This document shows, in pieces, positions 1 through 42,341 of a DNA stretch of 64,000 nucleotides. Position 1 is the first letter of the stretch. Each line of letters begins with the position of its first letter. Where the stretch lies: contig NW_024704742.1 of assembly GCF_018977255.1 (NCBI RefSeq), positions 38,564,001 through 38,628,000 on the forward strand. The letters run 5' to 3'. This stretch comes from Callorhinchus milii. Taxonomy: Eukaryota. The position numbers and the translations under genes are program-made. The notes below the pieces were generated by a model that worked only from the letters and a program-made list of their open reading frames with translations, had not been told where the DNA came from and searched no databases.

Positions 1-46
1 ATAAGTATGGAAATATTTGCTGAATTTCCTTAACATATCTCCATAG

Positions 47-243
47 ATATGGTTTTCCAAGGGATGGCTTCAGCAAAAGCCCAGTGGGCCTTGGTCATTC
101 TCGTAAGTGTTTACATAGCATCACTTGCAATTGAATTGCGATTTTACAACTTTCAGATTCACTTCTGGGATATAAGAAATAGTTCAGGAAACACGAATAA
201 AGCGGGAGCACAAGTCATTCTGGCTTCAAACCTTGTTAGTTAA
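47..243 (+). CDS. TMEM150C: Last coding exon of TMEM150C-like copy 0 (rest of gene lies upstream of the window)
   Basis: U12 branch point TTCCTTAAC and TAG acceptor before 47. Encodes (Y)MVFQGMASAKAQWALVILVSVYIASLAIELRF..., aligning to TMEM150C [24 protein letters not shown]. Near-identical to 14361-14557 and 26704-26900. Confidence 0.8.
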
Positions 244-624
244 ACATGCAGTATTTGTCCTGTAAAGAGTACAGAATAGTGACAGGGTATACTGTCAGTT
301 TTCACTTTGAATATTATTGTTGAGTTTTGTTTTTCAAAGAACAGTATATTCTGTACAACTAACTATTTAACTCCATTACTGATCTTCCTTGGTCAGACTG
401 ATCTTTGATATCAAGCGGGTAAGGGTGCCCCTATCTGGAGAAGCAGTATTTGCACACTGCAGAGTCACTAGGTTTTGACTCTTACCAACCTGCATTGAAT
501 ACATTCTGGAATAAGGCAAACAAGCTGAGTCCATTCGGGAGAATGGGTAGTCGATTTCAAACAGAGAAATTTCATGTGTAGGTGACGTACATATGTGAAA
601 CTCTGTCCAGTTTGGATAGTCTTA

Positions 625-1060
625 ATAATAATAATAATAATCATCCGTGAATTTGATACAGCACCTCAAACGTCTCAAAGCGCTTCACAGAATATCCTGT
701 AAAGTTAATTGAATGTATATTTTGTTGGTGAAATGTGTTAGCCAATTGCATACAGCAGTATCCCACAAACATGATGATGGGTTTCTGCACTGCTCCAGAG
801 AGATATTCCTTCCACTTTGAGTAATGTTATTGAAATAGGGCTTCTGAATTTGGTAGGATGTAAAAGTGAAAATAATAAATAATAATTTACATTTGATATA
901 GCGCATTATCACGTCTTCGATACGTCTCAAAACGCTTCACAGAATATACTGTAAAGTGAATTCATTGTATATTTTGTAGGCGAAACGCAGGAGCCAATTG
1001 CGCACAGCAGCGTCCCACAAACAGTTGTGGATTGAGTGACCGCATTATTATTATTATTAT
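625..1060 (-). mobile_element. Two 5'-truncated SINE 3' fragments between TMEM150C-like and NDUFS2 3' ends (repeated in each unit)
   Basis: Match the body and tail of the full-length SINE (AAGCGCTTCACAGAATATACTGTAAAGTGAATT, CCAATTGCGCACAGCAG, (TAA)n). Confidence 0.7.
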
Positions 1061-1096
1061 TAATATACTGTAATATTGAATTATTTCCAGCGTTGT

Positions 1097-2470: not shown

Positions 2471-3412
2471 CTCTTCTTTCTCTCCTCTCTCCTTCCCTCT
2501 CTCTCACTCCTTCCCCTCTCTCTCTCTCCTTCCCCTCTCTCTCTCTCCTTCCCCTTCTCTCTCTCCTTCCCTCTCTCTCACTCCTGCTCTCCTTCTCCTT
2601 CACCCTCCTTCCCTCTCTCTGTCTCTCTCACTCCTGCTCTCCTTCCCCCTCCTTCCCTCTCTCTCTCCTTCTCTTTCTCCTCTCTCTCTCTCACTCCTGC
2701 TCTCCGTCTCCTTCCCTCGCTCTCTCCTCTCTCTCCTTCCCCCCCCTCTCTCTCACTGCTGCTNNNNNNNNNNNNNNNNNNNNNNNNNNNNNNNNNNNNN
2801 NNNNNNNNNNNNNNNNNNNNNNNNNNNNNNNNNNNNNNNNNNNNNNNNNNNNNNNNNNNNNNNNNNNNNNNNNNNNNNNNNNNNNNNNNNNNNNNNNNNN
2901 NNNNNNNNNNNNNNNNNNNNNNNNNNNNNNNNNNNNNNNNNNNNNNNNNNNNNNNNNNNNNNNNNNNNNNNNNNNNNNNNNNNNNNNNNNNNNNNNNNNN
3001 NNNNNNNNNNNNNNNNNNNNNNNNNNNNNNNNNNNNNNNNNNNNNNNNNNNNNNNNNNNNNNNNNNNNNNNNNNNNNNNNNNNNNNNNNNNNNNNNNNNN
3101 NNNNNNNNNNNNNNNNNNNNNNNNNNNNNNNNNNNNNNNNNNNNNNNNNNNNNNNNNNNNNNNNNNNNNNNNNNNNNNNNNNNNNNNNNNNNNNNNNNNN
3201 NNNNNNNNNNNNNNNNNNNNNNNNNNNNNNNNNNNNNNNNNNNNNNNNNNNNNNNNNNNNNNNNNNNNNNNNNNNNNNNNNNNNNNNNNNNNNNNNNNNN
3301 NNNNNNNNNNNNNNNNNNNNNNNNNNNGTCCTTCCCCCTCTCCCTCCCTCTCTCTCTCCTTCCCCCCCTCTCTCCCCCTCTCTGTCTCCTTCCCCCTCTC
3401 CCCCTCTCTCCC
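2471..3412. repeat. Polypyrimidine/polypurine (CT/GA) tract abutting the NDUFS2 ATG; contains N gap 2764-3327
   Basis: CTCTCCTTCCC-type units on both sides of the gap. Confidence 0.9.
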
Positions 3413-3640
3413 CGACACAAGGTCACCACAAAATGGCGAGGCTGTGGTGAGAGCAGTGCATTCTGGGAATCTTTCTGCCTGAAACGCCTCCAGAACACAC
3501 AGTTGTCGGCGCTGCCATCGGGTGGAGGTTTTTGCAGCACTTTGTGTTGGATGTCAGGAGGGCAATAACTTGCACTTATTGGTTTGTTTAGTGCCAATCA
3601 TAGGGTAAGACGATGGTCTCATAAGTGCTCCATATAGATA

Positions 3641-3962
3641 ATAATAATAATAATCCTTGCATTTGATATAGCGCTTTTCACGTCGGGAGGACGTCCCAAA
3701 GCGCTTCACAGAACACACTGTAAAGTGAATTGACTGTATATTTGTGGGCGAACGCGGCAGCCAATTGCGCACAGCAATGTCCCACAAACAGTCGTAGATT
3801 GAAAATGACCAATTTATTATTGTTTTTGGTTTTGGAGGGATTATTATTAGGCTCTGTGTGGAGTAAGGAAACTTGCCCAAGGTTTCGCCCTCTGCCTGGA
3901 ATTGAACTCAGGTCTCTCGCTTGCAAAGCGAGTGCTCTAACCACTGAGCTACAGGACTCCAC
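3641..3962 (-). mobile_element. Full-length young tRNA-derived SINE, present in this array unit only
   Basis: Head GGAGTCCTGTAGCTCAGTGGTTAGAGCAC...GAGTTCAATTCC (A/B boxes) and (TTA)n tail. Flanked by AGATA at 3636-3640 and 3963-3967. Empty site at ~17670 and ~29715. Confidence 0.9.
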
Positions 3963-4162
3963 AGATAGTGGAGGAAAGACTGTCCAGGAGGGAAGTTTAT
4001 CAATGCCGCTTTGTAAATCACTGGTGTGACTGCACTTGGAATACTGTGTACAGTTATTATAATAATCCTCAAGTTAATAATCCCTCAAGAAATTTTTTTT
4101 TGCTCACTCAATCCACAATTGGCCGACAAGTTTTGCCCAATCAATATGCAGTCAATTCACTT

Positions 4163-4475: not shown

Positions 4476-4481
4476 AACACG

Positions 4482-4622
4482 CAGCAGGTCAGGCAGCATC
4501 TATGGAGAAAGGAAAGGGAATGAACGTTTCGGGTGCACGACCCTTCGTGAAGACGCAATCGTGGACCCCAAACATTGACTGACTTTCCTTTCCTTTCTCC
4601 GCGGATGCTGCCTGACCTGCTG
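4482..4622. repeat. ~140 bp imperfect palindrome (Penelope/MITE-like element)
   Basis: CAGCAGGTCAGGCAGCATCTATGGAGAAAGGAAAGG pairs with CCTTTCCTTTCTCCGCGGATGCTGCCTGACCTGCTG. Copy at 18188-18328. Confidence 0.75.
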
Positions 4623-4679
4623 AGCCCTCCCAGTGATCTCGGGCTCTGCTCCGGATTTCCAGCGTTGAGCGCCTTTGCC

Positions 4680-4850
4680 GAAGTGGGAATGACCTGTCAG
4701 TTGCGCGGCACCGCCCACCCGACACCCGAGGCCGCTGATTGGTCCGAGCGTCTGTCAGTCAGGACGCGGGCCCAATGAGACAGGCGAGGAGGCGGCTGCG
4801 CGTCAGCATCACGTGGGGTCAGGGGCGGTGAGGAAGGCACAAGGTAACGG
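4680..4850 (+). promoter_or_regulatory. CpG-rich promoter and probable non-coding exon 1 of TMEM150C-like copy 1
   Basis: ATTGG and CCAAT boxes, CACGTG E-box, GGGGCGG GC-box, and a donor AAG|GTAACG at 4843/4844. The next exon (acceptor at 7582) carries the ATG. Confidence 0.6.
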
Positions 4851-5109
4851 TCTGTCTCGACAGCCGCTTCGAACAGGAGACGGTGGTGATCGCACTCACA
4901 CTCACACACTGGGGGTCACACCAACATCGGGCGGTGACTCACGTATCGCCTTTCACACGGTAACGACAATAACTTGACGGCGGCGGCGGAGCGCGGGGGG
5001 TGGAGGGGGGTCGAAGAGGAAGGCCTTCGGGTGCGACCTGAAGGTGGGGGAGGGGAGGGCCCAGGGGAGGGGAAGAATGTTCTAGAGTTTCGGGGGGGGG
5101 GGGGGTGGG

Positions 5110-5760
5110 GTGCCACAACAACAACATGACATTTATAGAGAGCGCCTTTCGCGTTGGGAGGACCTCCCAAAGCGCTGGACATTAAGGTGTACGCGGCTCG
5201 AGCGTGGGGGGAGGGGAGGGGGTGGGGGGGGAGGGGTGTGGGGGTGGGAGGGGTGGAGGGGAGAGCGACCAAAGGCGCGGTCGAAGAGAAGGGTCGTGAG
5301 ACCGGCCTTGAAGGAGGCGAGGGAGGGAGGGAGGGAGGGAGGCGGAGGGACCGTGGGGTGGGGTTCCAGAGCGAGGGGCAGAGAGGCTGAAAGCCCGGAC
5401 ACCGATGGTCGGGCGGGTCGGGCCCCGCTGAACGGAGGGAGCGGGCGGGTTGATAGGGAACAGATGGCCCACGGGACGTGCGGAAGGCCAGAGCCCGTCG
5501 AGCGGAGGCAGCGGGTCGTGGGTTGGGGGGGTAAGGGAGGTACCAGGGCTGGAGGGGATTTGAAAGCGAGTGTGAGGATCGTGAAACTGATGTGTTTGGC
5601 GATGGGGAGCCAGTGGAGTCTGGCTATAATTGGGGTGATGGGGGTGCGGAGTTCAGTACGAGTGAGTATGCGGGCGGTGGAGTTTTGGATCAGCCGGACC
5701 TTGTGGATGGTGGAGCTGCGGGGACTGGCGAGGAGCGCATTTGAATAGTCGTTTTAATTT
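5110..5760 (-). mobile_element. L2-type LINE 3' fragment
   Basis: Degenerate ORF2 C-terminus on the minus strand (RAFSLSAP..., SLASFKAGLTT.LF) and a (CAA)n tail. Confidence 0.7.
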
Positions 5761-6481
5761 TCTTAATGCACTTTTTGTTCTTTGTTTTGAACTACTTGGA
5801 CAGGGTAGCACGTCAAGCGATAGGGTCTTGTGGTCAAATGGGGAGATTTTTTTTTTCACTTTGTTTTGCGCTGCTCACCTGCTTTTATCTGTTTCAGGCG
5901 GGTTTGCTTAAGTGACTGGTCAGATGCTTCTTTGTACGTTTTAACTTTCTCCTAATGCATTTTTTGTTCTTAGTTTGGACCTACTTGGACCTATCTCTGG
6001 AACTCTCTGCCTCAATCCCTCTGTCTTGCCCCCTCTTTGCCTGTCTTGAAACCACCCCGGAAGACTTTGCTCTTTTACCTTGCTTTTGGTCACCTCCCCT
6101 CTCTATCCAGTGCAGCGTCAAACCACATCTCTGTTAAGTGCTCTGAGATATTACTGCTTTAGTTGTGTTTTACTTGCCTTTCTCTGCTCGCCACCAATCC
6201 ACCATCTCTGAGGAAGAGTCCCACTGAAAACGCTATCCTGTCTTTCTCTTTCAGATACTATCGATAGGCTGTGCATTTCCACTTCTATTCCTTTCTATTC
6301 CTATTCCTTGGTTCCCTAACAATCAGCAGAGCAGATTCCCACCTCGGTTTTCTGAGGTGGATTTCAACCAGGGTCACAGAGGTGAAATGATTCTGCCAAA
6401 TCTACAGCACCACCCAATGTCCCATTTATGTTCTATTAATGCTGTGCAATTTAGCTCCTACCAAGAAATGGTGTTCAGACA

Positions 6482-6850
6482 ACCACAACAACAACAAAAT
6501 TAGATTTATAGAGTGCCTTTCAAATCGGGAGGACCTCCCAAAGTGCTGAACATGTCAGGTGTTGGGACCCGAGCATGGGGGAGTGGTGGGTGTAGGGGTG
6601 AGGGAAGGCAGAAAGGTGGGAGAGCGACCAAAGGCACGATCGAAGAGAAGGGTCGTGAGACCGGCCTTGAAGGAGGCGAGGGAGGGAGGGAGGGAGGGAG
6701 GGAGCGAGGCAAAGGGATTGTGGGATGGAGTTCCAGAGTGTGGGGGCAGAGAGGCTGAAAGCCCGGCCACCGATGGTTGGGCGGGAGACATGGAGCAGAC
6801 CAGAGCCCACTGAAGGAGAGAGTGGGCAGGTTGGTAGAAAGTCAGCAAGT
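6482..6850 (-). mobile_element. L2-type LINE 3' fragment (second copy)
   Basis: [20 protein letters not shown] motif and (CAA)n tail. Homologous to 5110-5410. Confidence 0.7.
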
Positions 6851-7619
6851 CAGAGAGTTTGGAGGGAGGAGAAGCCGTTTGCTGCGAGACAAAGGCAGAG
6901 AGAGTTCAGTTCAGCAGATACCAGTTCAGTGAGATATTGTAACCAGATTGATATGGGGCTGTGAGCAACTGTTCCTACTACATGGAGCATCAGTAGCCAC
7001 ACCATCGAGCAACTTGCAGCCAGTGAGTGCTCCCTGCATGGTGATTGGGTTACGGGAGGGAGGCTTGAGAGGCTTCCAGCAACAGTGTCCCATAGTGCCT
7101 TCAAGAAATGCCCTCCCAATAATAAAATAATAATCATCTTTGCATTTAATATAGCACCATTCATGTTGGGTGGATTTCTCAAAGCGTTTCAAAAGATTTT
7201 ACAAAAGTTTGGTATTTGTGCATTGGAGGGTTGTGCATCTGACCAGTCACTGGGCTCTTCTACAAAAAGGAAGCCTATCGATGAGCCGAGAGGGTTCGAA
7301 AGACATTCCCACCCATGGGGACAATGTGTCTGGGAGGAGCAGGTGTCCCTCCTTTCTGTTAGTGCTCACTGCAGGTGGTATGAGTTATTTTGTTGCATTT
7401 GGTTCAATGGTCAGTGCTGCAAGACGCTACCCCATGTGAGGGGCCCAATATATAAATTAAGTTGTTGTTCTCGTCAATGGTTTGTTCACCAATTATGATT
7501 GGTGTCGATAGTTTCTTCTGTGACACCCTCATGCCCACTAAAAAATCTTTGTGCAAGTAACACCTTGTCGCTTTTGTTTCAGAAAGAAAGAAGTCAAAAT
7601 TTGTAAACCACACACTAAA

Positions 7620-10600
7620 ATGAAGAAAATAAGCTTTTGGATGTGCATTCCCATTGCATTCCTGATTGTTGTCATCATTGGAATAATTACAGTGTAAGTT
7701 TACTTTCCTGCTCCTACTATCCTGTGTGAACTAGTCTGCAATTTGTTTTATTTAGTTACAATAAAATAGAGGTTGGACTTGTTCTTCTCCCTCTGCTGAG
7801 GATGTGAGTTACCTGTAGGTGGTTTGAAGCATTTGCATTGATGCCAAACTAAATAGAATTAACATTGTTCAAATGTTTAAAATCCAGCTGATAATTGAGA
7901 AGTTTACTTCTTGTTAAAACTCCAACCAATTTATTTAAATTTAAATATCTTTTGTTAGTTTATTTTTATTAATATTAAGAATATCAATGCATTGTACACC
8001 TGACAATACATGCTGTGAAGCTTTGTACCTGTGTGTGAGTGTGTGTGCCTCTCCGTCTCTCTCTCTCTACATCGACATTGAGGCTTTCTCCTCATGGTTC
8101 ATTCAGCGAGTTTATCCAGAGTATAGATGAGCCACGTGGACTATGAAGATCCCAGGTTTGATCCCCAGTCTGTACTGAGTTATAACCTTTTTAGATTGGT
8201 ATAGAAACCCCCATTATAATGAATTGACTGTTTCAGGTCCATAAGCCGTGAGGGGGGATAAAGCTAAATTGGCTGCCACAGTCACTTCCTGCAGGTTGCA
8301 CATGTGCACTATGAGCAAATGTATCAGCCAGGCTCAGTTGGTAGCACTCTCGCCTCCGAGTCAGAACATTGTGGGTTCAAGCTTCACATTGGAACCCATA
8401 TAGTCTATGCTGACCCTCCGATGCAGTGCTGGGGTTACGCCGCATTGTCAGACGTGACATCTTTCGGATGAGATGTTAAACCAAGGTCCCGTCTGCCTGT
8501 TCAGGTGGATGTTAAAGATTCCATGGCACGATTCGAAAGGAGAAGGGAGTTTCTGACAGTGTCCGGGCCAACAATTCCCCCAAGTAACGACCATTTAACA
8601 CTTCCCACAATCCAGTGTACTACAGCACTGCATTGGAGTATTAGTCCAGACTATGAAAAGTGCTGATGTGGGCTTGAACCCACAACAACACCAACTTGCA
8701 TTTATTTTGGCCCTTCACGCAAGTAACATCTTGGAGTGTTTAAAATGAATCTTCTGATTGAGAAATGAGTGCTACCAGCTGAGCCAGGCTGCCTTGACAT
8801 TTTGTAGTGTGTTTGGTGAACAGGTCCAACTCCAGCACATCTGGGGACCAGTCATTGTGTTAAAGTCACTAAAGTCAGTGCATGCATTTATTTGTGCCAT
8901 ATTAACATTGTTAGCAAGTCACAACACTGGAAGATGGGTCAGGTAATAATAATCCTTACATTTGATACAACAACAACAAGATTACATTTGTGCAGCACCT
9001 TATCACATCGTCGAGATGTCTCAAAGTGCTTCACAGGATATACTGTAAAGTGGATTGACTGTATTTTGTGGGCAAAACGTGCAGCCAGTTTGCTGTGGAG
9101 TGAGTGACCAATTTTTACTGGGGAATTTGTTGGTCAGGACAGTGGGAGAGTTACCCCTTTCTTTTCGAATGTGCCATAGGATCTTTAACATCCACCTAAT
9201 CAGGCAGATGGGACCTCGAATTAATGTCTCATCTGAAATGACGATACCTCCAACAATGTATCACCGCCCCCCAGAACTAGAATGTCAGCTTGGACTATGT
9301 GATCCCAAGTCCCGACATGGGATTTGAACCCACAATCTTCTGACTCAGAGACGAAAATGCTACTACTGCGCCAGGCTGACACACAGTCAATAGACAGGAG
9401 AGGTCTCCAGCAACAGTAGCATGGAGAACCAGCATCCCAATGGAATAATTCAGGTTTCACTACAAAAGGAAGGGAAGCCTAGAGAGGGGCCTAGAGGGAA
9501 ATAAGAGAAAGAAGATGGGAATAAAATACTCTGGATATGTTTTATTTTAGGATCATTTTAGACATGTCAAATTTTATTTTAAACAGATACGTAATAGCAA
9601 GGCAAGAGCAAAGGGTCTGTTCACTTGTTAGCACGTGAGTTAAATTTTTTTGGCCACATAATATCTTAACCTACATTACTTGGGCATAAATTTGTTTGGA
9701 AGGACTCGTGCCTGGAGGAGAATTTGGGGTATTGCCTTTGGCTGCTGGGCTCGGAATTAGGGAATCTCTGACAGGGATTTGTCTAACTGATCGGTATCCA
9801 GTAACCTTTTGCTGGAAATTATGTATGTGTGTGTGTGTGGCTGTTGGGTGATCGAGGGAGGGGTAATGTCTGGAATTGTTATGCTCTTAGGCTTAAGACC
9901 TTTGTATTAAAATTGGAGAAGACTATGCTGAGTTTGGGAAAATGGTCTTAAATTCAGTTTTAATTTGGAAACCCATTTTCCACAGTTCCTACTTGGTCCT
10001 GCAGAAAAATAACTCCTGAATTGAGACTGAATTGAAAATAGTTTTCCAAAATTCTGCATGATCTTTGGTTTGTAATGCAAGATTATGCAGAAGTTTGGAA
10101 AATTAATACATTCAGTCTGAATTCAGAAGCTGTTTTTCTGTTGTTCCTCCAAAGAGCTGAGTAAAATTAATTTTAAAAATCTTGCAAAATTCTGCCTGAT
10201 CTTATATTTTGAGTTAAGGAGATGCACGGTTGAGGGGGAGAGATGGAAGAGCAATAAAATGCAACATATAATTATTGAAATCTATTTACCCTGTAAGTAG
10301 ATTTGTTTCCATGTTGTATGACTGTAAATAACTGTATGTTAATCAAAACCAATTGTGTTTTCTTGCTGGTTTTTCTTATTGAATGTAGGCAAGAAAATTG
10401 TACATTGAAAACTCCCTTTATAAGGTACAGTAGACTTCTATGCAATGTATTTTATTCAGTTTCACCTCTTATTAGTTAATTCAATGTAATATTTTGGAAA
10501 ATCACTCTTTTTCTTTTGAAGTGTGACAGCTGAATATCCTCCTGGAAGCTATATTTTTGCGGAAACAATGTGCCTTGCAGCATTTTTAGGTAGGAAAAGA

Positions 10601-13600
10601 TTCTTAATATTTGCTTATTTGCATTCAGAGCTGTGTGCGAATGGCATTTATGTTGCGTAGAATTACAGAGATTGTTACAACACAGAAATGGGCATTCGGG
10701 CCAACTAATCCGTGCCAGTGGTTATATTTCAGGTGAGTCTCCATCTGTCCTAATACTCTCTCCCACCTCTTCTATGTTACCATCTGTGCTTGTTGAATGA
10801 CGGAAATTGGTCAGTTTATTTTCTTACTTGTTTCCCTTTCTCTTGTAAGGACACTGTTGCATCATTAGAGTTCTGTTGGTATTGGCTCCTCTTCAGTATA
10901 CCACGAAAGTGACTGTCATTAATGTTTAAACGTGAACAGTGATTGTGAATGAGAGCTATCATGGATGTGAGGGCAATGGAGCTGAGTCTGACTATGTCCT
11001 TTCCTATTGGCCACAGATCTGTTCTTTTGAGCTTAAAAAAAGGGAGAACAACACTGTAGCAATCTGAGTAGCAACGGAGTTGATTTTTCTTTACCCCTTT
11101 TCTTACCTTGGGGCACTGATGTCACTTTGCAGGATTGCTGACACAGTACTGACTGACATCAGCTGGGACCTGCCTGGTCTGAATTGGCTTTGAAATCTGT
11201 TTAACGAAAATGGATTCATTGAGCGAAGACATTAGTTTTTTATATTTAAAGAAGTAATAACTTCATTCTTTTTGAACTAGGTTCAGAAGTGAATCTTTAA
11301 TTTTCCTATTATAAGTGCATTTTTATAGGACTGAGAAGAGTAACCACAAAGGTGCTTGTGGAAAGAGAACATTGACAACTATTTTGAGACCAGCCAGATA
11401 ATAATTATAGTATTAAATAACCATCATTATTATAAGATAGATATCAGTGTTCTTTTCCAGTCCTGTTTGCCCTTTATTTCCATACGACTGGAAACTAACG
11501 TGAGTTAAGGTTGCTGAAGATATTGTTATTTGCTAAAAATTGATTTGTTCTACTTTTCCACCTCTTCCAGTGCTTGTAACCGCTGTATTACGGTTTACGA
11601 TACTTCAGACCATGACAAAGAATCAATTCAAGATACTTAACACCATTACGCTGGCATTGCTGTGTCTCGTGTGTGTTGGAATGACGATATTGGGCAATGT
11701 CCAGGTGTAGCTTTTCTGTTTCATTTTCCCAGGCGTATTAAGCAAGTTCCTTGTTACTGGTTCTGGGTGCAAAGCAGCTTTTAATCCTGTCCTTCTGTCA
11801 ATGTGATGTCAATGCATCGGCCAGTACTGCCTTGTGGACTTGGTGAGTTATTGATCTCAACCATGTGTCTGGCAGATCCCCAGTGGATATCTGGACCATC
11901 CCTGAGGTATCATTCAAACATAGAAATTCCTCAAGGTGGGGGTATGGAATCACTCGGGGTGGGGAGGTACACTCAGCTATCCTGATTTACAATACCCTAT
12001 CAAATGCAAATTTACACCCAATTGAAATTGGCTCATGTTGTTGTTTATGGGATGTGACTGGTGCGGATTAGCTGTCGCAACAAGCCAGGAAATTGTATTG
12101 AAAGATTGGGCATATTAACCCATAGAATGGTGGAACAGGCTTGTTGGACTGAATAGTCTCCTCCTGTTCCCATCAAAGTCAGGTCTACATCATTCTCTTT
12201 TAGATGTGTGGTATTAATAGTCAATAAGCAGCAGAATACCATTTGATCGTAGTTTGAGACGATGGCTTGATTTGTCTGGTGTAAAATTATCCAGTAATAA
12301 AATAATAATCCTTGCATTTTATATTGTGCGTTAAGACATCTTTGAAATGTCTCAAAGCGCTTCACAGAATATAACTGTAAAGTGAATTCACTGTATATTT
12401 TGTGGGCGAAATGCGGCAGCCAATTGCACACTTCATTGTCCCACAAAACAGTCGTGGATTGAGTGACCAAATTATTATTTTTATTTATTTATTTTGAAGG
12501 GATCGTTACCCATGGAAAAGTAAACAGTGAACCTCCATACAACATCAGATTCATTATTTTGTTAGTCTATATCAACATCTCCATTATTGGATTACTATTA
12601 TTGTAGTATGCGACTACCAGGATGGTAGAAGGCGATCTAGATAGACCTTGGTCTATTTCTTCTAGCATTTCCTGTGTTGCTATGTACTATACTTCTGGTC
12701 CATTTGCTTTTCCAGTTTACATTTATTTAAAAAAAATGCATAGGTTTCTAACTCTCCAGTGTCCAAGAAGATAAAGGCACCAACCACCTAGTTCAGTAAT
12801 CAGTGAGTCACATTAACCAGAAGGTGGCAGGTTTATAGTAATTCAGTTACAACTAAGATCAGGAACCATTAATTCACACAAAGGGTTGTGAAGATGTGGA
12901 ATGCTCTGCCCCAGAAAGCTATGGAGCCTGATTCAATAGGAATGTTTTAGGGAGAGGTATCCAGACACTTGGGGATTAAAGGTATAAAGGGGTAAGGAGA
13001 AAAGGTGGGGGATTGCGATTAAAAGATCTGACAATTGACTTGGGAGGAAGTGGGGGAAAAAGTTAGGGTATTAGCTCCTGATCACTATTGATGGATCATC
13101 TAAAACATAAATATAAGGATTATACTCAACGTAAACATTTATCTGCAGAAAAATTTGTTTGAATGTTGACTGCAGACATAAGTAGATTTGGCTTTTGTAG
13201 TGCATCACAGCCAAGCTCGATCATGTCTCCAGCCGTGTCCTTTCCCTTTCAGGTCAGGGAGCAATTATACCATCCGTAATGCCTCCCTGATCAGCTAACT
13301 CAGCACAGTCTCAGATGTGGATAGCAATATAAAGATTGTAAATGGTTATTTGATGGTTGAGGACCTTAAACGAAACAGGAATGTTAGTGAGCCTCTGAAT
13401 TATGAGTGATTTGTACTTGCACAGAGCAGCAGTTTTGTGACACAAATGGTATTTTATCCTTCCAGTTGTCCGTCAACAGTTTGTTGCATAATATCGGTGC
13501 CTACGCAGCCTTTGGAGTTGGATTAATAGCCTGTTGGACCAATTCTGTGCTGACATTCCACGCGAATATCCAAATGGAAGGGCGAATAATCGGGATCTTC

Positions 13601-18556: not shown

Positions 18557-18814
18557 TCTGTCTCGACAGCCGCTTCGAACAGGAGACGGTGGTGATCGCA
18601 CTCACACTCACACACTGGGGTCACACCAACATCGGGCGGTGACTCACGTATCGCCTTTCACACGGTAACGACAATAACTTGACGGTGGAGGGGGGGGTCG
18701 GCCGAGGCGACGGTCGAAGAGGAAGGCCTTCGGGTGCGACCTGAAGGTGGGGGAGGGGAGGGCCCAGGGGGAGGGGGAGAATGTTCTAGAGTTTCGGGGG
18801 GGGGGGGGGGGTGT

Positions 18815-19190
18815 GCAACAACAACAACATGACATTTATAGAGCGCCTTTCGCGTTGGGAGGACCTCCCAAAGCGCTGGACATTAAGGTGTCCGCGGCTC
18901 GAGCGTGGGGGGAGGAGGGGTGGGGGGGCTGGAGGGGTGGGGGGGAGGGGGGGGGGGGGGGGAGAGCGACCAAAGGCACGATCGAAGAGAAGGGTCGTGA
19001 GACCGGCCTTGAAGGAGGCGAGGGAGGGAGGGAGGGAGGGAGGGAGCGAGGCAAAGGGATTGTGGGATGGAGTTCCAGAGTGTGGGGGCAGAGAGGCTGA
19101 AAGCCCGGCCACCGATGGTTGGGCGGGAGACATGGAGCAGACCAGAGCCCACTGAAGGAGAGAGTGGGCAGGTTGGTAGAAAGTCAGCAA
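18815..19190 (-). mobile_element. Chimeric L2-type LINE 3' fragment
   Basis: Left part matches 5110-5275; right part matches 6635-6850. Confidence 0.7.
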
Positions 19191-19962
19191 GTCAGAGAGT
19201 TTGGAGGGAGGAGAAGCCGTTTGCTGCGAGACAAAGGCAGAGAGAGTTCAGTTCAGCAGATACCAGTTCAGTGAGATATTGTAACCAGATTGATATGGGG
19301 CTGTGAGCAGCTGTTCCTACTACATGGAGCATCAGTAGCCACACCATCGAGCAACTTGCAGCCAGTGAGTGCTCCCTGCATGGTGATTGGGTTACGGGAG
19401 GGAGGCTTGAGAGGCTTCCAGCAACAGTGTCCCATAGTGCCTTCAAGAAATGCCCTCCCAATAATAAAATAATAATCATCTTTGCATTTAATATAGCACC
19501 ATTCATGTTGGGTGGATTTCTCAAAGCGTTTCAAAAGATTTTACAAAAGTTTGGTATTTGTGCATTGGAGGGTTGTGCATCTGACCAGTCACTGGGCTCT
19601 TCTACAAAAAGGAAGCCTATCGATGAGCCGAGAGGGTTCGAAAGACATTCCCACCCATGGGGACAATGTGTCTGGGAGGAGCAGGTGTCCCTCCCTTTCT
19701 GTTAGTGCTCACTGCAGGTGGTATGAGTTATTTTGTTGCATTTGGTTCAATGGTCAGTGCTGCAAGACGCTACCCCATGTGAGGGGCCCAATATATAAAT
19801 TAAGTTGTTGTTCTCGTCAATGGTTTGTTCACCAATTATGATTGGTGTCGATAGTTTCTTCTGTGACACCCTCATGCCCACTAAAAAATCTTTGTGCAAG
19901 TAACACCTTGTCGCTTTTGTTTCAGAAAGAAAGAAGTCAAAATTTGTAAACCACACACTAAA

Positions 19963-22900
19963 ATGAAGAAAATAAGCTTTTGGATGTGCATTCCCATTGC
20001 ATTCCTGATTGTTGTCATCATTGGAATAATTACACTGTAAGGTTACTTTCCTGCTCCTACTATCCTGTGTGAACTAGTCTGCAATTTGTTTTATTTAGTT
20101 ACAATAAATTAGAGGTTGGACTATCCTTCTCCCTCTGCTGAGGATGTGAGTTATCTGTAGGTGGTTTGAAGCATTTTCTTTGATGCCAAACTAAATAGAA
20201 TTAACGTTGTTCAAATGTTTAAAATCCAGCTGATAATTGAGAAGTTTACTTCTTGTTAAAACTCCAACCAATTTATTTAAATTTAAATATCTTTTGTTAG
20301 TTTATTTTTATTAATATTAAGAATATCAATGCATTGTACACCTGACAATACATGCTGTGAAGCTTTGTACCTGTGTGTGAGTGTGTGTGCCTCTCCGTCT
20401 CTCTCTCTCTACATCGACATTGAGGCTTTCTCCTCATGGTTCATTCAGCGAGTTTATCCAGAGTATAGATGAGCCACGTGGACTATGAAGATCCCAGGTT
20501 TGATCCCCAGTCTGTACTGAGTTATAACCTTTTTAGATTGGTATAGAAACCCCCATTATAATGAATTGACTGTTTCAGGTCCATAAGCCGTGAGGGGGGA
20601 TAAAGCTAAATTGGCTGCCACAGTCACTTCCTGCAGGTTGCACATGTGCACTATGAGCAAATGTATCAGCCAGGCTCAGTTGGTAGCACTCTCGCCTCTG
20701 AGTCAGAACATTGTGGGTTCAAGCTTCACATTGGAACCCATATAGTCTATGCTGACCCTCCGATGCAGTGCTGGGGTTACGCCGCATTGTCAGACGTGAC
20801 ATCTTTCGGAAGAGATGTTAAACCAAGGTCCCGTCTGCCTGTTCAGGTGGATGTTAAAGATTCCATAGCACGATTCGAAAGGAGAAGGGAGTTTCTGACA
20901 GTGTCCGGGCCAACAATTCCCCCAAGTAACGACCATTTAACACTTCCCACAATCCAGTGTACTACAGCACTGCATTGGAGTATTAGTCCAGACTATGAAA
21001 AGTGCTGATGTGGGCTTGAACCCACAACAACACCAACTTGCATTTATTTTGGCCCTTCACGCAAGTAACATCTTGGAGTGTTTAAAATGAATCTTCTGAT
21101 TGAGAAATGAGTGCTACCAGCTGAGCCAGGCTGCCTTGACATTTTGTAGTGTGTTTGGTGAACAGGTCCAACTCCAGCACATCTGGGGACCAGTCATTGT
21201 GTTAAAGTCACTAAAGTCAGTGCATGCATTTATTTGTGCCATATTAACATTGTTAGCAAGTCACAACACTGGAAGATGGGTCAGGTAATAATAATCCTTA
21301 CATTTGATACAACAACAACAAGATTACATTTGTACAGCACCTTATCACATCGTCGAGATGTCTCAAAGTGCTTCACAGGATATACTGTAAAGTGGATTGA
21401 CTGTATTTTGTGGGCAAAACGTGCAGCCAGTTTGCTGTGGAGTGAGTGACCAATTTTTACTGGGGAATTTGTTGGTCAGGACAGTGGGAGAGTTACCCCT
21501 TTCTTTTCGAATGTGCCATAGGATCTTTAACATCCACCTAATCAGGCAGATGGGACCTCGAATTAATGTCTCATCTGAAATGACGATACCTCCAACAATG
21601 TATCACCGCCCCCCAGAACTGGAATGTCAGCTTAGACTATGTGATCCCAAGTCCCGACATGGGATTTGAACCCACAATCTTCTGACTCAGAGACGAAAAT
21701 GCTACTACTGCCCAAGGCTGACACACAGTCAATAGACAGGAGAGGTCTCCAGCAACAGTAGCATGGAGAACCAGCATCCCAATGGAATAATTCAGGTTTC
21801 ACTACAAAAGGAAGGGAAGCCTAGAGAGGGCCTAGAGGGAAATAAGAGAAAGAAGATGGGAATAAAATACTCTGGATATGTTTTATTTTAGGATCATTTT
21901 AGACATGTCAAATTTTATTTTAAACAGATACGTATTAGCAAGACAACAGCAAAGGATCTGTTCACTTGTTAGCACGTGAGTTAAATTTTTTTGGCCACAT
22001 ATATCTTAACCTACATTACTTGGGCATAAATTTGTTTGGAAGGACTCGTGCCTGGAGGAGAATTTGGGGTATTGCTTTTGGCTGCTGGGCTCGGGATTAG
22101 GGAATCTCTGACAGGGATTTGTCTAACTGATCGGTATCCAGTAACCTTTTGCTGGAAATTATGTATGTGTGTGTGTGTGGCTGTTGGGTGATCGAGGGAG
22201 GGGTAATGTCTGGAATTGTTATGCTCTTAGGCTTAAGACCTTTGTATTAAAATTGGAGAAGACTATGCTGAGTTTGGGAAAATGGTCTTAAATTCAGTTT
22301 TAATTTGGAAACCCATTTTCCACAGTTCCTACTTGGTCCTGCAGAAAAATAACTCCTGAATTGAGACTGAATTGAAAATAGTTTTCCAAAATTCTGCATG
22401 ATCTTTGGTTTGTAATGCAAGATTATGCAGAAGTTTGGAAAATTAATACATTCAGTCTGAATTCAGAAGCTGTTTTTCTGTTGTTCCTCCAAAGAGCTGA
22501 GTAAAATTAATTTTAAAAATCTTGCAAAATTCTGCCTGATCTTATATTTTGAGTTAAGGAGATGCACGGTTGAGGGGGAGAGATGGAAGAGCAATAAAAT
22601 GCAACATATAATTATTGAAATCTATTTACCCTGTAAGTAGATTTGTTTCCATGTTGTACGACTGTATATAACTGTATGTTAATCAAAACCAATTGTGTTT
22701 TCTTGCTGGTTTTTCTTATTGAATGTAGGCAAGAAAATTGTACATTGAAAACTCCCTTTATAAGGTACAGTAGACTTCTATGCAATGTATTTTATTCAGT
22801 TTCAACTCTTATTAGTTAATTCAATGTAATATTTTGGAAAATCACTCTTTTTCTTTTGAAGTGTGACAGCTGAATATCCTCCTGGAAGCTATATTTTTGC

Positions 22901-25900
22901 GGAAATAATGTGCCTTGCAGCATTTTTAGGTAGGAAAAGATTCTTAATATTTGCTTATTTGCATTCAGAGCTGTGTGCGAATGGCATTTATGTTGCGTAG
23001 AATTACATAGATTGTTACATCACAGAAATGGGCATTCGGGCCAACTAATCCGTGCCAGTGGTTATATTTCAGGTGAGTCTCCATCTGTCCTAATACTCTC
23101 TCCCACCTCTTCTATGTTACCATCTGTGCTTGTTGAATGACGGAAATTGGTCAGTTTATTTTCTTACTTGTTTCCCTTTCTCTTGTAAAGACACTGTTGC
23201 ATCATTAGAGTTCTGTTGGTATTGGCTCCTCTTCAGTATACCACGAAAGTGACTGTCATTAATGTTTAAACGTGAACAGTGATTGTGAGTGAGAGCTATC
23301 ATGGCTGTGAGGGCAATGGAGCTGAGTCTGACTATGTCCTTTCCTATTGACCACAGATCTGTTCTTTTGAGCTTTAAAAAAAGGGAGAACAACACTAGCA
23401 ATCTGAGTAGCAACGGAGTTGATTTTTCTTTACCCCTTTTCTTACCTTGGGGCACTGATGTCACTTTGCAGGATTGCTGACACAGTACTGACTGACATCA
23501 GCTGGGACCTGCCTGGTCTGAATTGGCTTTGAAATCTGTTTAACGAAAATGGATTCATTGAGCGAAGACATTAGTTTTTTATATTTAAAGAAGTAATAAC
23601 TTCATTCTTTTTGAACTAGGTTCAGAAGTGAATCTTTAATTTTCCTATTATAAGTGCATTTTTATAGGACTGAGAAGAGTAACCACAAAGGTGCTTGTGG
23701 AAAGAGAACATTGACAACTATTTTGAGACCAGCCAGATAATAATTATAGTATTAAATAACCATCATTATTATAAGATAGATATCAGTGTTCTTTTCCAGT
23801 CCTGTTTGCCCTTTATTTCCATACGACTGGAAACTAACGTGAGTTAAGGTTGCTGAAGATATTGTTATTTGCTAAAAATTGATTTGTTCTACTTTTCCAC
23901 CTCTTCCAGTGCTTGTAACCGCTGTATTACGGTTTACGATACTTCAGACCATGACAAAGAATCAATTCAAGATACTTAACACCATTACGCTGGCAATGCT
24001 GTGTCTCGTGTGTGTTGGAATGACGATATTGGGCAATGTCCAGGTGTAGCTTTTCTGTTTCATTTTCCCAGGCGTATTAAGCAAGTTCCTTGTTACTGGT
24101 TCTGGGTGCAAAGCAGCTTTTAATCCTGTCCTTCTGTCAATGTGATGTCAATGCATCGGCCAGTACTGCCTTGTGGACTTGGTGAGTTATTGATCTCAAC
24201 CATGTGTCTGGCAGATCCCCAGTGGATATCTGGACCATCCCTGAGGTATCATTCAAACATAGAAATTCCTCAAGGTGGGGGTATGGAATCACTCGGGGTG
24301 GGGAGGTACACTCAGCTATCCTGATTTACAATACCCTATCAAATGCAAATTTACACCCAATTGAAATTGGCTCATGTTGTTGTTTATGGGATGTGACTGG
24401 TGCGGATTAGCTGTCGCAACAAGCCAGGAAATTGTATTGAAAGATTGGGCATATTAACCCATAGAATGGTGGAACAGGCTTGTTGGACTGAATAGTCTCC
24501 TCCTGTTCCCATCAAAGTCAGGTCTACATCATTCTCTTTTAGATGTGTGGTATTAATAGTCAATAAGCAGCAGAATACCATTTGATCGTAGTTTGAGACG
24601 ATGGCTTGATTTGTCTGGTGTAAAATTATCCAGTAATAAAATAATAATCCTTGCATTTTATATTGTGCGTTAAGACATCTTTGAAATGTCTCAAAGCGCT
24701 TCACAGAATATAACTGTAAAGTGAATTCACTGTATATTTTGTGGGCGAAATGCGGCAGCCAATTGCACACTTCATTGTCCCACAAAACAGTCGTGGATTG
24801 AGTGACCAAATTATTATTTTTATTTATTTATTTTGAAGGGATCGTTACCCATGGAAAAGTAAACAGTGAACCTCCATACAACATCAGATTCATTATTTTG
24901 TTAGTCTATATCAACATCTCCATTATTGGATTACTATTATTGTAGTATGCGACTACCAGGATGGTAGAAGGCGATCTAGATAGACCTTGGTCTATTTCTT
25001 CTAGCATTTCCTGTGTTGCTATGTACTATACTTCTGGTCCATTTGCTTTTCCAGTTTACATTTATTTAAAAAAAATGCATAGGTTTCTAACTCTCCAGTG
25101 TCCAAGAAGATAAAGGCACCAACCACCTAGTTCAGTAATCAGTGAGTCACATTAACCAGAAGGTGGCAGGTTTATAGTAATTCAGTTACAACTAAGATCA
25201 GGAACCATTAATTCACACAAAGGGTTGTGAAGATGTGGAATGCTCTGCCCCAGAAAGCTATGGAGCCTGATTCAATAGGAATGTTTTAGAGAGAGGTATC
25301 CAGACACTTGGGGATTAAAGGTATAAAGGGGTAAGGAGAAAAGGTGGGGGATTGCGATTAAAAGATCTGACAATTGACTTGGGAGGAAGTGGGGGAAAAA
25401 GTTAGGGTATTAGCTCCTGATCACTATTGATGGATCATCTAAAACATAAATGTAAGGATTATACTCAACGTAAAAATTTATCTGCAGAAAAATTTGTTTG
25501 AATGTTGACTGCAGACATAAGTAGATTTGGCTTTTGTAGTGCATCACAGCCAAGCTCGATCATGTCTCCAGCCGTGTCCTTTCCCTTTCAGGTCAGGGAG
25601 CAATTATACCATCCGTAATGCCTCCCTGATCAGCTAACTCAGCACAGTCTCAGATGTGGATAGCAATATAAAGATTGTAAATGGTTATTTGATGGTTGAG
25701 GACCTTAAACGAAACAGGAATGTTAGTGAGCCTCTGAATTATGAGTGATTTGTACTTGCACAGAGCAGCAGTTTTGTGACACAAATGGTATTTTATCCTT
25801 CCAGTTGTCCGTCAACCGTTTGTTACATAATATCGGTACCTACACAGCCTTTGGAGTTGGATTAATAGCCTGTTGGACCAATTCTGTGCTGACATTCCAC

Positions 25901-26900
25901 GCGAATATCCAAATGGAAGGGCGAATAATCGGGATCTTCCGTACTTTCCTTTCGTTCACAGCAACAATAGCCTTTATCCTGTGTATCCTTCATCCGTGTG
26001 TTAAGAAAAAAGGCAACAGCATAGAAATCAGGACTCAAATGCTCATTTTCTGACCCGCTGACCTTGGAAAGGTGAGTTTTATCAGTTCCTAACTCTTTAC
26101 CTTCTTCATTTCCAGGACCTTAACCCTGAATTTGTTTCTCCCTCTGTTTTCATTTTAACCTTCATGCAATGTTGCCAGATTGAGTGGGTTCACACCCAAT
26201 TTGGTGTGTTTTTGTTGTACTATGTGTGAGAAAACAGCTTTGGGTGGTGCCTAATTGTTAAAGTTTTAATTTGAACCCTTTGACGACGTTTTCTTAGTTC
26301 CAAAAGCACTAACCTAAATTGGTCACTCTGATACCCATAGTAGGTAAGCAACACGTAATATTAGGCTACTTTTGGGCTAGTATTTGGTTGACTTTGGGCT
26401 ACAAAAGTATTTTAATTTCTGGCCAATCTGACTTTGTTGTGTACTGCATTATCAAATGCTGCTGTTCATGCAGACAACAAAGGCGAGAGTTTGGTTCAGC
26501 AGCTGGCACTTGCAACTCTGGGTCATGAATGAATTTCTGCTGTTCATTCTATGTGTCATGTGTAGCACACGGTGTTTTCAGCTTAAAGAAAGCAGTAGAT
26601 GGATTTCATGTACTTAAGAAGAAAATTTATTAATTGCCAAAAGCAGTACAGTATCTGATAAGTATGGAAATATTTGCTGAATTTCCTTAACATATCTCCA
26701 CAGATATGGTTTTCCAAGGGTTGGCTTCAGCAAAAGCCCAGTGGGCCTTGGTCATTCTCGTAAGTGTTTACATAGCATCACTTGCAATTGAATTGCGATT
26801 TTACAACTTTCAGATTCACTTCTGGGATATAAGAAATAGTTCAGGAAACACGAATAAAGCGGGTGCACGAGTCATTCCGGCTGCAAACCTTGTTAGTTAA
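19963..26900 (+). CDS. TMEM150C: Diverged TMEM150C-like protein, copy 2, 244 aa
   Basis: Coding exons 19963-20036, 21928-21975, 22729-22764, 22862-22929, 23910-24043, 25805-25982, 26704-26900. Frame and splice sites intact. U12 intron at 25983-26703. Confidence 0.85.
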
Positions 26901-27749
26901 ACATGCAGTATTTGTCCTGTAAAGAGTACAGAATAGTGACAGGGAATACTGTCAGTTTTCACTTTGAATATTATTGTTGAGTTTTGTTTTTCAAAGAACA
27001 GTATATTCTGTATAACTAACTATTTAACTCCATTACTGATCTTCCTTGGTCAGACTGTTCTTTGATATCAAGCGGGTAAGGGTGCCCCTATCTGGAGAAG
27101 CAGTATTTGCACACTGCAGAGTCACTAGGTTTTGACTCTTACCAACCTGCATCGAATACATTCTGGAATAAGGCAAACAAGCTGAGTCCATTCGGGAGAA
27201 TGGGTAGTCGATTTCAAACACAGAGAAATTTCATGTGTAGGTGACATACATATGTGAAACTCTGTCCAGTTTGGATACTCTTAATAATAATAATTATCCG
27301 TGAATTTGATACAGCACCTCAAACGTCTCAAAGCGCTTCACAGAATATCCTGTAAAGTTAATTGAATGTATATTTTGTTGGTGAAATGTGTTAGCCAATT
27401 GCATACAGCAGTATCCCACAAACATGATGATGGGTTTCTGCACTACTCCAGATAGATATTCCTTCCACTTTGAGTAATGTTATTGAAATAGGGCTTCTGA
27501 ATTTGGTAGGATGTAAAAGTGAAAATAATAAATAATAATTTACATTTGATATAGCGCATTATCATGTCTTCGATACGTCTCAAAACGCTTCAAAGAATAT
27601 ACTGTAAAGTGAATTCATTGTATATTTTGTAGGCGAAACGCAGGAGCCAATTGCGCACAGCAGCGTCCCACAAACAGATGTGGATTGAGTGACCGCATTA
27701 TTATTATTTTTATTAATATACTGTAATATTGAATTATTTCCAGCGTTGT

Positions 27750-29123
27750 TTACCGATCAACTTCACCAAACACAATATCTTGTGTTCCTATAATCGCAAC
27801 CACATCAGCTAACATGTGTCCCTGAGACATTTTATCAAGTCCGGCTAAATGAGCAAAACCGGGCGCTTTAATCTTACATCTATAAGGGCGACTTGTTCCA
27901 TCTGACACTAAATACACTCCAAACTCCCCCTTTGGCGCTTCAATCGCTGTGTAAGTGGCCCCAGGCGGAACTTGATATCCCTCCGTATATAACTTAAAAT
28001 GATGGATTAATGCTTCCATTGACTCCTTCATCTCGCTTCTCTTGGGAGGAGAGATTTTAGCATCATCAACTTTGATCTCTCCCTCAGGCATCTTGTTCAG
28101 GGCCTGAAGTACAATCCTCAAACTCTGCCTCATCTCCTCCACCCGACACACATAGCGATCATAACAATCTCCATTACTTCCTATGGGGACGTCGAATTCC
28201 ACCTGGTCATAGGCATCGTAGGGTTGAGATTTTCTTAAATCCCATTTTATCCCAGATCCTCTTAACATCACCCCACTGAATCCATAATTCAACGCTTCCT
28301 GAGCTGTTATGACTCCAATATCAACCGTACGATTTTTCCAAATTCTGTTGTCTGTGAACATCTCCTCGACCTCATCAATTCGGATCGAGAAATTGGTCAT
28401 AAAGGTGTATATATCGTCCATTAATCCGAGGGGAAGGTCCTGATGGACGCCACCAGGTCGGACATAAGCTGCGTGCATTCTGGCTCCGGAAACCCGCTCG
28501 TAGAATTCCAACATCTTTTCCCTCTCCTCGAACATCCAGAAAAATGGGGTCATCGCCCCAATATCAAGAGCGTGTGTGGTTATGGCCATAATGTGGTTCA
28601 ATATTCTGGTGATCTCTCCGAACAGGACTCTTATCCACTGAGCTCGAGGAGGTGGTCTGATGTTCAGCAGCTTCTCCACAGCGAGAGAATAGCACTGTTC
28701 ATTGCACATCATAGACACGTAATCCAGTCTGTCAAAGTAGGGCAGGGCCTGCAGGTAGGTTTTAGCCTCGATCAGTTTCTCTGTCCCGCGGTGTAAGAGG
28801 CCGATGTGGGGGTCACACCGCTTGACCGACTCCCCACTCAACTCCATCACCAGCCTCAGGACACCATGAGCTGCCGGGTGTTGTGGCCCAAAGTTTACAG
28901 TCAGGGTAGAGACGGTTTTCTCTGCCGGAGGGTCTTTGTCGTTCCAGGGCGCAGGTTTCCACTTGATGTTGTTGTGATCGGGATACATGACGGCTCCGGA
29001 GTATTGCTGCATCCACTGCTCGTCCGGCTGCCACTGCTGAGCTCCTCGGCTGATGGCGGCCCCGAGGCCCTGAAGAGGCGGGAGGAGGAGGCGCTGAGCT
29101 CGACATAGCCCGGCTCTCAGCAT
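27750..29123 (-). CDS. NDUFS2: Intronless NDUFS2 retrogene copy 3 (array-terminal), 457 aa
   Basis: Complete ORF, protein identical to copy 1. AATAAA (plus-strand TTTATT at 27709-27714) lies ~36 nt past the stop. Confidence 0.96.
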
Positions 29124-29383
29124 CTCTTCTTTCTCTCCTCTCTCTCCTTCCCCTTCTCTCTCTCTCTCCTTCCCCTCTCTCTCTCCTTCCCCTCTCTCTC
29201 TCCTTCCCCTCTCTCTCTCCTTCCCCTTCTCTCTCTCCTTCTCCTTCTCTCTCTCCTTCCCCTTCTCTCTCTCCTTCTCCTTCCCTCTCTTTTTCTCTCT
29301 CCTTTCCCTTCTCTCTCTCTCTCTCTCTCACTGCTGCTCTCCTTCCCCCCCCCTCTCTCTCTCTCCTTCCCCCTCTCTCTCCC
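29124..29383. repeat. Fully resolved ~260 bp CT/GA tract upstream of NDUFS2 copy 3
   Basis: Almost pure pyrimidine on the plus strand. Confidence 0.92.
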
Positions 29384-29852
29384 CGACACAACGTCACCAC
29401 AAAATGGTGAGGCTGTGGTGAGAACAGAGCATTCTGGGAATCTTTCTGCCTGAAAATCCTCCAGAAAACGCAGCAATCCCCAACTTTACGCAAACAGCAC
29501 AAAGTCGACCCCATTGGGGATCGCAGGTCACCTTTCCAGAGCCGGAGATCTTTATTTCTGTTTGGAAAGTTATTGTAAGTTGTCGCCGCTGTCATGGGGT
29601 GGAGCCTTTTGCAACACTTTGTGTTGGATGTCAGGAGGGCAATAACTTGCATTTATTGGTTTGTTTAGTGCCAATCATAGGGTAAGATGATGGTCTCATA
29701 AGTGCTCCATATAGATAGTGGAGGAAAGACTGTCCAGGGAGGGAAGAGGAATTTTTAAGTGTTGACCAAAAGCACAGTCAAAATGATGCCTTTCTTTGAA
29801 TACAAATGTATGCTTTACATGTAGGAAAAATTCAAAACTATTTTTAAAGGCA

Positions 29853-31951: not shown

Positions 31952-42341
<10,390 letters not shown>

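Follow-up and report, generated by a model that had tools for sequence, protein, structure and literature searches.

A tandem array of TMEM150C-like genes and intronless NDUFS2 copies beside ENOPH1 in Callorhinchus milii

Introduction

Why should a core subunit of complex I be encoded by an intronless gene in several copies, each of them tied to a gene of the TMEM150C family? The question is raised by a stretch of 64,000 nucleotides of the Callorhinchus milii genome (NCBI RefSeq assembly GCF_018977255.1, contig NW_024704742.1, positions 38,564,001 to 38,628,000 of the forward strand). The whole stretch is called the window here, and coordinates are counted from its first letter. NDUFS2 orthologues are multi-exon, and TMEM150C is a single-copy gene in mammals. 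In the window both genes are repeated together, in a block next to ENOPH1 that was first noticed in a sequence-only reading. The explanation that we favour, and hold to be reasonably probable, is that an old retroposition placed NDUFS2 beside TMEM150C, that the block was then duplicated in tandem, and that gene conversion and selection on TMEM150C would have shaped the copies, with NDUFS2 as an intact passenger.

Array structure and copy number

The array itself is confirmed as real within the assembled sequence. On comparing the window with itself by BLAST, 6486-16785 aligned with 18816-29122 at 98.8% identity, 1-2469 with 14315-16785 at 98.9%, and 1-2754 with 26658-29381 at 96.9%. Together with the gene models, these matches bear out the three units of the sequence-only reading, in each of which a TMEM150C-like gene or its last exon converges on a complete intronless NDUFS2. 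The units lie head-to-tail and are about 12-14 kb long, and the left end of the array is beyond the window start. Each holds a minus-strand NDUFS2 frame of 457 amino acids facing a plus-strand TMEM150C-like gene (two complete, one present as its last exon only), the converging stops being 849 bp apart. One repeat unit spans roughly 17692-29737 and takes in the TMEM150C promoter region. It starts about 0.8 kb ahead of a CpG island (observed/expected ratio, o/e, of 0.95-1.0) with a candidate non-coding first exon and runs to a point some 0.6 kb upstream of where NDUFS2 starts, homology among the units stopping near 29740. Internal NDUFS2 copies stand head-to-head with the next TMEM150C promoter region, and the terminal copy has the 3′ end of ENOPH1 upstream. 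The array lies immediately downstream of ENOPH1, as the sequence-only reading had stated, its nearest unit 2.8 kb below the ENOPH1 stop, and HNRNPDL lies on the far side of ENOPH1. The order HNRNPDL, ENOPH1, TMEM150C, given in that reading as mammalian, is the same in cattle (PMC13491712), and the synteny of the TMEM150C-like genes with ENOPH1 and HNRNPDL matches it.

The possibility had been raised that the units are mis-assembled haplotypes of a single copy. The assembly speaks otherwise, as the junction between an NDUFS2 edge and a TMEM150C promoter is found twice in clean sequence. The unit 2 right edge with its tandem junction to unit 3 (17444-17691) differs from the terminal edge (29124-29737, including the GA-rich tract) in 16 of 248 bases (6.5%, as against 0-1% elsewhere) and by a 106-bp indel. 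Since such a junction is impossible in a single-copy locus and the terminal edge is diverged to this extent, at least two real copies are likely, and haplotype collapse to one copy was rejected. The three distinct last exons of the TMEM150C-like genes favour three or more copies, and the third unit could be allelic. In that case each haplotype would carry two true copies, the assembler would have placed an allele in tandem, and the excess of exon differences reported below would reflect balancing selection between alleles. An intron divergence of 0.55% is within the allelic range, the unit 2 edge is identical to that of unit 1 (0 differences in 225 bp), and near both junctions N runs interrupt the GA-rich tract that precedes NDUFS2 copies 1 and 2. 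We nevertheless regard this as unlikely: the last exons are of three kinds, the junctions differ by the insertion of a short interspersed nuclear element (SINE) and by a 1.37-kb recombination deletion, and 16 replacement polymorphisms would be needed in one small gene.

Divergence between the units

When units 2 and 3 were compared, 19 of the 735 coding bases of the TMEM150C-like genes were found to differ and 16 of these differences alter an amino acid, as against 34 of 6198 bases in the introns, 9 of 849 in the spacer and none of 1373 in NDUFS2. Replacement changes at 16 of 563 sites (2.8%) stand against an intron rate of 0.55% (Fisher p=1.5e-6), and the excess holds against the most divergent single intron (p=0.0009). 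Across the three copies of the last exon, 8 of the 9 variable codons have an altered amino acid, the differences between copies numbering 5, 5 and 8. Non-coding divergence is itself uneven, at 6.5% in the terminal edge, 1.0% in the promoter, 0.1% in the 5′ intron and 0.55% in the coding introns. These rates exclude 41 of the 42 upstream differences between units 2 and 3, which fall in a chimeric fragment of a long interspersed nuclear element (LINE), because this fragment is not like-for-like between the two units. Intron differences lie nearer to exons than random placement would give (mean 255 versus 352 bp, p=0.007).

Relaxed constraint on TMEM150C was rejected as a source of these differences, replacement divergence being five-fold above the intron rate, and so was CpG hypermutation, as only 4 of the 19 exon differences are of CpG type. 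A further candidate is a neutral, recent segmental duplication in which the exon excess arose by chance or by polishing of the assembly. Such a duplication would suit a repeat-rich region with recombination between LINE fragments, and polishing may flatten sparse differences between near-identical copies. The binomial p for 16 replacements at the intron rate is 1.6e-7, however, and polishing does not produce exon-specific, frame-preserving changes; all 12 coding introns of the two units keep their GT-AG ends. We find this candidate very improbable.

If concerted evolution is opposed by selection, coding divergence between tandem paralogues should exceed intron divergence, and this is what we observed. 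Divergence was also raised near the presumed selected sites and at the array edges, except in the band closest to the exons. The pattern agrees with an older duplication whose copies gene conversion has made alike and in which selection has kept the TMEM150C genes different. A recent duplication followed by positive selection would agree with it too, and either route would require selection on TMEM150C. As candidate tracts of recent conversion we noted 18960-19962 in the 5′ intron, with 1 difference per about 1000 bases from its unit 2 counterpart, and 24316-24815 with none.

The TMEM150C-like gene and its product

The unit 2 gene (7620-14557, plus strand) has coding exons at 7620-7693, 9587-9634, 10389-10424, 10522-10589, 11571-11704, 13466-13643 and 14361-14557. 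The unit 3 gene (19963-26900, plus strand) has its seven at 19963-20036, 21928-21975, 22729-22764, 22862-22929, 23910-24043, 25805-25982 and 26704-26900. Each encodes 244 amino acids, 228 of them identical between the two. Of unit 1 the last coding exon is present (47-243, plus strand; the others lie left of the window), and it differs in 5 of 197 bases from unit 2 and likewise from unit 3. Probable promoters of TMEM150C, to judge from their position, are the plus-strand CpG islands at 4500-5000 for unit 2 (o/e 1.0; candidate non-coding exon ending with a donor site at 4843; head-to-head with NDUFS2 copy 1) and at 18200-18700 for unit 3 (candidate non-coding exon ending at 18549; head-to-head with copy 2). 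The latter has motifs that we take to be CCAAT, E-box and GC-box elements.

When spliced, the unit 2 gene gives exactly the protein P0121, which is named Callorhinchus milii transmembrane protein 150C (in a cluster of five sequences), and the product matches the Pfam family Frag1/DRAM/Sfk1 (PF10277) with an E value of 7e-29. A single-sequence fold model of low confidence (predicted local distance difference test, pLDDT, 53.5) has six long helices. The best structural neighbour of the protein is a TMEM150C cluster (template modelling, TM, score 0.87). Sequence-feature scores were equal, at 0.96, for the TMEM150C and TMEM150A clusters, so that it is the structure which favours TMEM150C. Word searches for relatives returned P0121 only (1 of 14 candidates for exon 6 of unit 3; 1 of 1496 word-sharing candidates), and a search of the PDB with this protein gave no match. 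It is its own representative at 50% clustering, and its identity to the six library representatives that rank next is 35-44%. By these comparisons the predicted protein is strongly diverged.

In one study TMEM150C is reported to form a mechanosensitive pore whose wall is made by helices 3-4 and which narrows at E127, V131, F139 and W98 of the mouse protein (PMC11310380); it has also been termed a regulator of mechano-gated channels (PMC5929159), and a knockout study reports no role for it in mechanotransduction (PMC9582506). Cysteines are found in the window protein at the positions of Cys107 and Cys143 of the pore paper and were used as register anchors. The protein lacks tryptophan throughout residues 8-143 and acidic residues throughout 68-157, so that counterparts of W98 and E127 are absent in a register set by the two cysteines alone. 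On this evidence the proposed pore chemistry is not conserved in the predicted protein.

These residues bear on a shared sensory role of the two genes, which the sequence-only reading had thought conceivable. On that view the two would have been amplified together and would be active in the same cells, which sense mechanical stimuli, electric fields or oxygen, NDUFS2 being linked to oxygen sensing. The reported mechanosensitive pore (PMC11310380) speaks for such a module; the paralogues differ at residues 105, 125, 132 and 134, which lie in helices 3-4 and would line the pore of the published model, and the head-to-head promoter geometry permits co-expression. Against it are the knockout result (PMC9582506), the missing W98 and E127 counterparts and the undiverged NDUFS2 proteins, the two genes having opposite signatures (16 amino-acid changes versus none). 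The suggestion is not borne out, and we hold the module to be distinctly improbable. Outer-surface changes in an amplified gene may stem from reproduction or host-pathogen conflict as well as from sensation.

The NDUFS2 copies

The three NDUFS2 copies are uninterrupted minus-strand frames without coding introns, 1374 bp long and encoding 457 amino acids, at 1097-2470 (copy 1), 15413-16785 (copy 2) and 27750-29123 (copy 3, the terminal one beside ENOPH1). Copies 1 and 3, the two that were scanned, cover the Complex1_49kDa profile end to end (E value 7e-128). In copy 2 an N run takes the place of the first base of the start codon, and the remaining 1373 bases are those of copy 3; copy 1 has two synonymous changes relative to both, and the protein is the same in all three. 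From the spacer rate about 29 replacements would be predicted among the copies and none is seen; synonymous changes number 2 versus about 8 predicted (p=0.012).

Alignment to the mature bovine subunit has no internal gaps and leaves about 27 basic or hydrophobic residues, a possible mitochondrial presequence, ahead of the aligned mature start. In its conserved part the protein is 88-91% identical to five bony-vertebrate NDUFS2 sequences, and tetrapod-teleost or bird-mammal pairs are at 88-92%. For a wider comparison 95 of 120 homologous hits were kept and 25 without a named organism were dropped. In all 95, H86, R112, Y135 and D187 are invariant, residues to which we ascribe quinone-site and N2-side roles. 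A tree of 22 rows (21 chosen from the 95, with the window copy as the sole cartilaginous fish) placed NDUFS2 within the vertebrate clade (support 99/96) and outside the bony vertebrates (89/90), as their sister and on an ordinary branch of 0.14. Because the catalytic residues are kept, the branch is ordinary and replacements among the copies are zero, NDUFS2 behaves like a working gene. It is probably a working retrogene carried along with its neighbour, and the comparisons indicate that it is constrained or homogenised and not decaying. A decaying pseudogene was rejected in view of the intact frames, absent replacements, invariant residues and normal tree position.

Some positions of the protein are unusual. 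Ala120 (28764-28766, minus strand; in all three copies) falls in a column where 92 of the 95 homologues have Tyr and the other 3 His, and its codon is two base changes away from a Tyr codon. None of the 95 has Phe256 or Val325, those columns being Leu in 93 and in 94.

Possible signs of transcription are a poly(A) hexamer 36 bp past the stop and a CpG o/e of 0.72 versus a background of 0.32-0.37. The GA-rich tracts 2471-3411, 16786-17443 and 29124-29382 (the first two broken by N runs) directly abut the start codons, so that a 5′ untranslated region (UTR) of NDUFS2 would be mainly simple repeat. Past the GA tract upstream of each copy lies a motif (3420-3440, 17455-17475 and 29390-29410) that may be a promoter element and which we take to be YY1-like; it matches fully in the internal copies and has one change in the terminal copy.

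It could be asked whether NDUFS2 itself drives the amplification, through dosage of a core subunit or through new head-to-head promoters, and the TMEM150C copies drift. All copies are intact and protein-identical, the internal ones gain a CpG island 1.4-2.5 kb upstream which the terminal copy lacks, and nematodes have NDUFS2 duplicates with cell-specific expression (PMC11265314). Drift, however, predicts TMEM150C replacements at or below the intron rate, and the observed rate is five times higher; also, a single extra subunit is unlikely to raise the amount of a multi-subunit complex. We consider an NDUFS2-driven array improbable.

Origin of NDUFS2 at this locus

Retroposition of NDUFS2 between TMEM150C and ENOPH1 followed by co-amplification, as the sequence-only reading had proposed, is supported. 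The argument rests on the missing introns and on the location. In human and pufferfish NDUFS2 is linked to FcR-gamma (PMC4536121), whereas its neighbours in the window are TMEM150C and ENOPH1, and the same flanks are common to all three copies.

The spacer between the converging stops (849 bp, 26901-27749 in unit 3) has one poly(A) hexamer per strand, at 27527 (plus) and 27714 (minus), and two old SINE-family 3′ fragments in NDUFS2 sense (27526-27711 and 27285-27424). The former, an old SINE 3′ half with a LINE-type tail (27526-27714), starts about 40 bases past the NDUFS2 stop, at the poly(A) hexamer, a placement with a rough chance of 0.016, computed post hoc. SINE and LINE of C. milii have common 3′ ends (PMC1845163), and such LINEs are thought to require that 3′ tail (PMC3747384). 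A LINE-mediated mobilisation of NDUFS2 through a SINE-derived tail is possible; a later SINE insertion into the A-rich 3′ end explains the arrangement equally well.

Edges, repeats and flanking genes

Between themselves the units differ by insertions and losses. The unit 1 right edge upstream of NDUFS2 (3412-3989) carries a young SINE headed by a transfer RNA (tRNA) at 3642-3963, not found in the other two edges. In unit 2 two LINE-like 3′ fragments (5115-5417 and 6486-6790, spanning 5115-6790) are separate, and in unit 3 they are one fused chimeric fragment whose diagnostic bases switch parent midway, about 1.37 kb having been lost by recombination between them. The roughly 106 bp at 29472-29577, found in the terminal edge only and absent from the internal edges, end beside a plus-strand GTAAGT resembling a splice donor.

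The tRNA-headed SINE family has 37 matches in the window and is abundant in C. milii (PMC1845163). Its copies at 3642-3963 (with a short imperfect target duplication), 39759-40076 and 61825-62146 are mutually 98-99% identical, and for this reason the family appears to have been recently active. An Rfam scan of the window found tRNA matches only, seven in number: six are at SINE heads, and the seventh (41797-41868) is at a fragment of an older SINE head. Decayed LINE reverse-transcriptase fragments lie at 30595-31232, between ENOPH1 and the array, and at 33050-34260 in the last ENOPH1 intron.

Both flanking genes are single-copy. The coding span of ENOPH1 is 31952-42341 on the minus strand, with its stop codon at 31952, and exon sequence matches the E-1 enzyme 1yns (E value 1e-18). 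The located coding exons of HNRNPDL lie at 43774-56860 on the plus strand, with approximate gene ends, and match hnRNP D-like (7zir) best, at an E value of 2e-39. Near the HNRNPDL 3′ part is a degenerate CA-rich minisatellite (57382-58224) with a 24-bp unit, of which 17 copies are at 57423-57844.

Proposed explanation

The course of events that we propose has three steps. First, in the chimaera lineage, reverse transcription of an NDUFS2 messenger RNA (mRNA) would have placed a copy in the space that separates the 3′ ends of TMEM150C and ENOPH1, and the insert would have stayed a working complex I gene. A stretch of 12-13 kb, reaching from the TMEM150C promoter to a point a little upstream of NDUFS2, would then have been duplicated into the head-to-tail structure seen in the assembly, which unequal crossing-over may have expanded; NDUFS2 was presumably hard to leave out of the unit because of its closeness to the TMEM150C stop. 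In the third step gene conversion would keep the introns and NDUFS2 near-identical among copies, as observed, and selection would hold the TMEM150C copies apart at amino-acid sites, mostly where the protein faces outward and in its C-terminal tail. The array would thus be driven by diversification of TMEM150C, with NDUFS2 as a passenger, kept intact and giving one protein from all copies. Passive hitchhiking had been called equally possible in the sequence-only reading. Hitchhiking has come out better supported than that, a selected amplification of TMEM150C being its likely vehicle.

Several points weigh against this explanation. It is built on genomic sequence alone. The signal of selection depends on the intron baseline, because within the TMEM150C exons the per-site ratio of replacement to synonymous differences (pN/pS) of 1.6 (16 versus 3 changes, p=0.59) is not significant, and the three synonymous changes weakly exceed the intron rate as well (p=0.067). 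The distance bands from the exons are not monotonic, the nearest (0-50 bp) having a divergence of only 0.5%. By topology the 16 changes divide into 10 outer, 5 in the C-terminal tail and 1 inner (p=0.011), a result obtained on the low-confidence six-helix model with boundaries set post hoc and weakened by a membrane orientation that we presume. Three sequences free of an outgroup are a set from which conversion tracts are not demonstrable. For the first step, there is no A-run after the NDUFS2 stop as a poly(A) remnant and no target-site duplication in the NDUFS2 flanks, where shared words of at least 9 bases are ATT repeats only; this lowers the retrogene claim and does not exclude it, because such marks are expected to decay in old insertions.

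A bolder version would make this NDUFS2 the sole one of the chimaera, an orphan retrogene which a CR1-type LINE had mobilised by way of a SINE-derived 3′ tail and which is now tied into a TMEM150C array under positive selection. The TMEM150C paralogues would encode functionally distinct membrane proteins that vary both in helices 3-4 and in their outer loops and might, for instance, tune mechano- or electrosensory cells of the snout, where the internal NDUFS2 copies would be driven from the shared TMEM150C promoter. Retrogenes of the orphan type, which replace their parent, are a known class (PMC3548309). We rate this version a long shot. If it were true, the array would be a natural allelic series bearing on the disputed channel function of TMEM150C.

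It would matter in itself if a jawed vertebrate encoded a core subunit of complex I in several intronless gene copies. Elephant shark DNA is reported to be slow-evolving (PMC1845163), and a TMEM150C that is highly diverged and diversifying in such a lineage would point to selective pressure. Natural TMEM150C variants without the proposed pore residues would be material for the dispute between channel and modulator, and gene conversion would be seen at a single locus together with both purifying and diversifying selection.

Comparison with known systems

Gene models of the window genes are already in databases. No description of the array was found among the matches listed in the open-licence PMC and bioRxiv literature, judged from the listings and with subscription literature outside the scope. 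The processes involved are known; their combination is new. Tandem, same-orientation copies in which amino-acid differences are kept and the rest is homogenised are found in ATP1A1 of Leptodactylus, in RHCE/RHD and in the red/green opsins of primates (bioRxiv 2020.08.04.234435). From these the present array, read from one species, differs in having an unrelated housekeeping retrogene inside the unit and at least three assembled units. With the orphan retrogenes that replace their parent (PMC3548309) the NDUFS2 of the window shares its intronless state, relocation and strong purifying selection; it differs in being multi-copy. Duplicates of NDUFS2 are described in nematodes and helminths (PMC11265314) and in retained tetraploid regions of Xenopus (PMC4536121). 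The nematode pair gas-1 and nduf-2.2 is likewise an instance of NDUFS2 paralogues within one animal, but that pair is old, 96% identical and has conserved amino-acid differences (PMC11265314), whereas the window copies are protein-identical, intronless, tandem and from a vertebrate. Finally, the TMEM150C-like genes share with vertebrate TMEM150C/Tentonin-3 (Frag1/DRAM/Sfk1) the PF10277 domain, the six helices, the close structural match and the position by ENOPH1 and HNRNPDL, and differ from it in being multi-copy and in the absent counterparts of W98 and E127.

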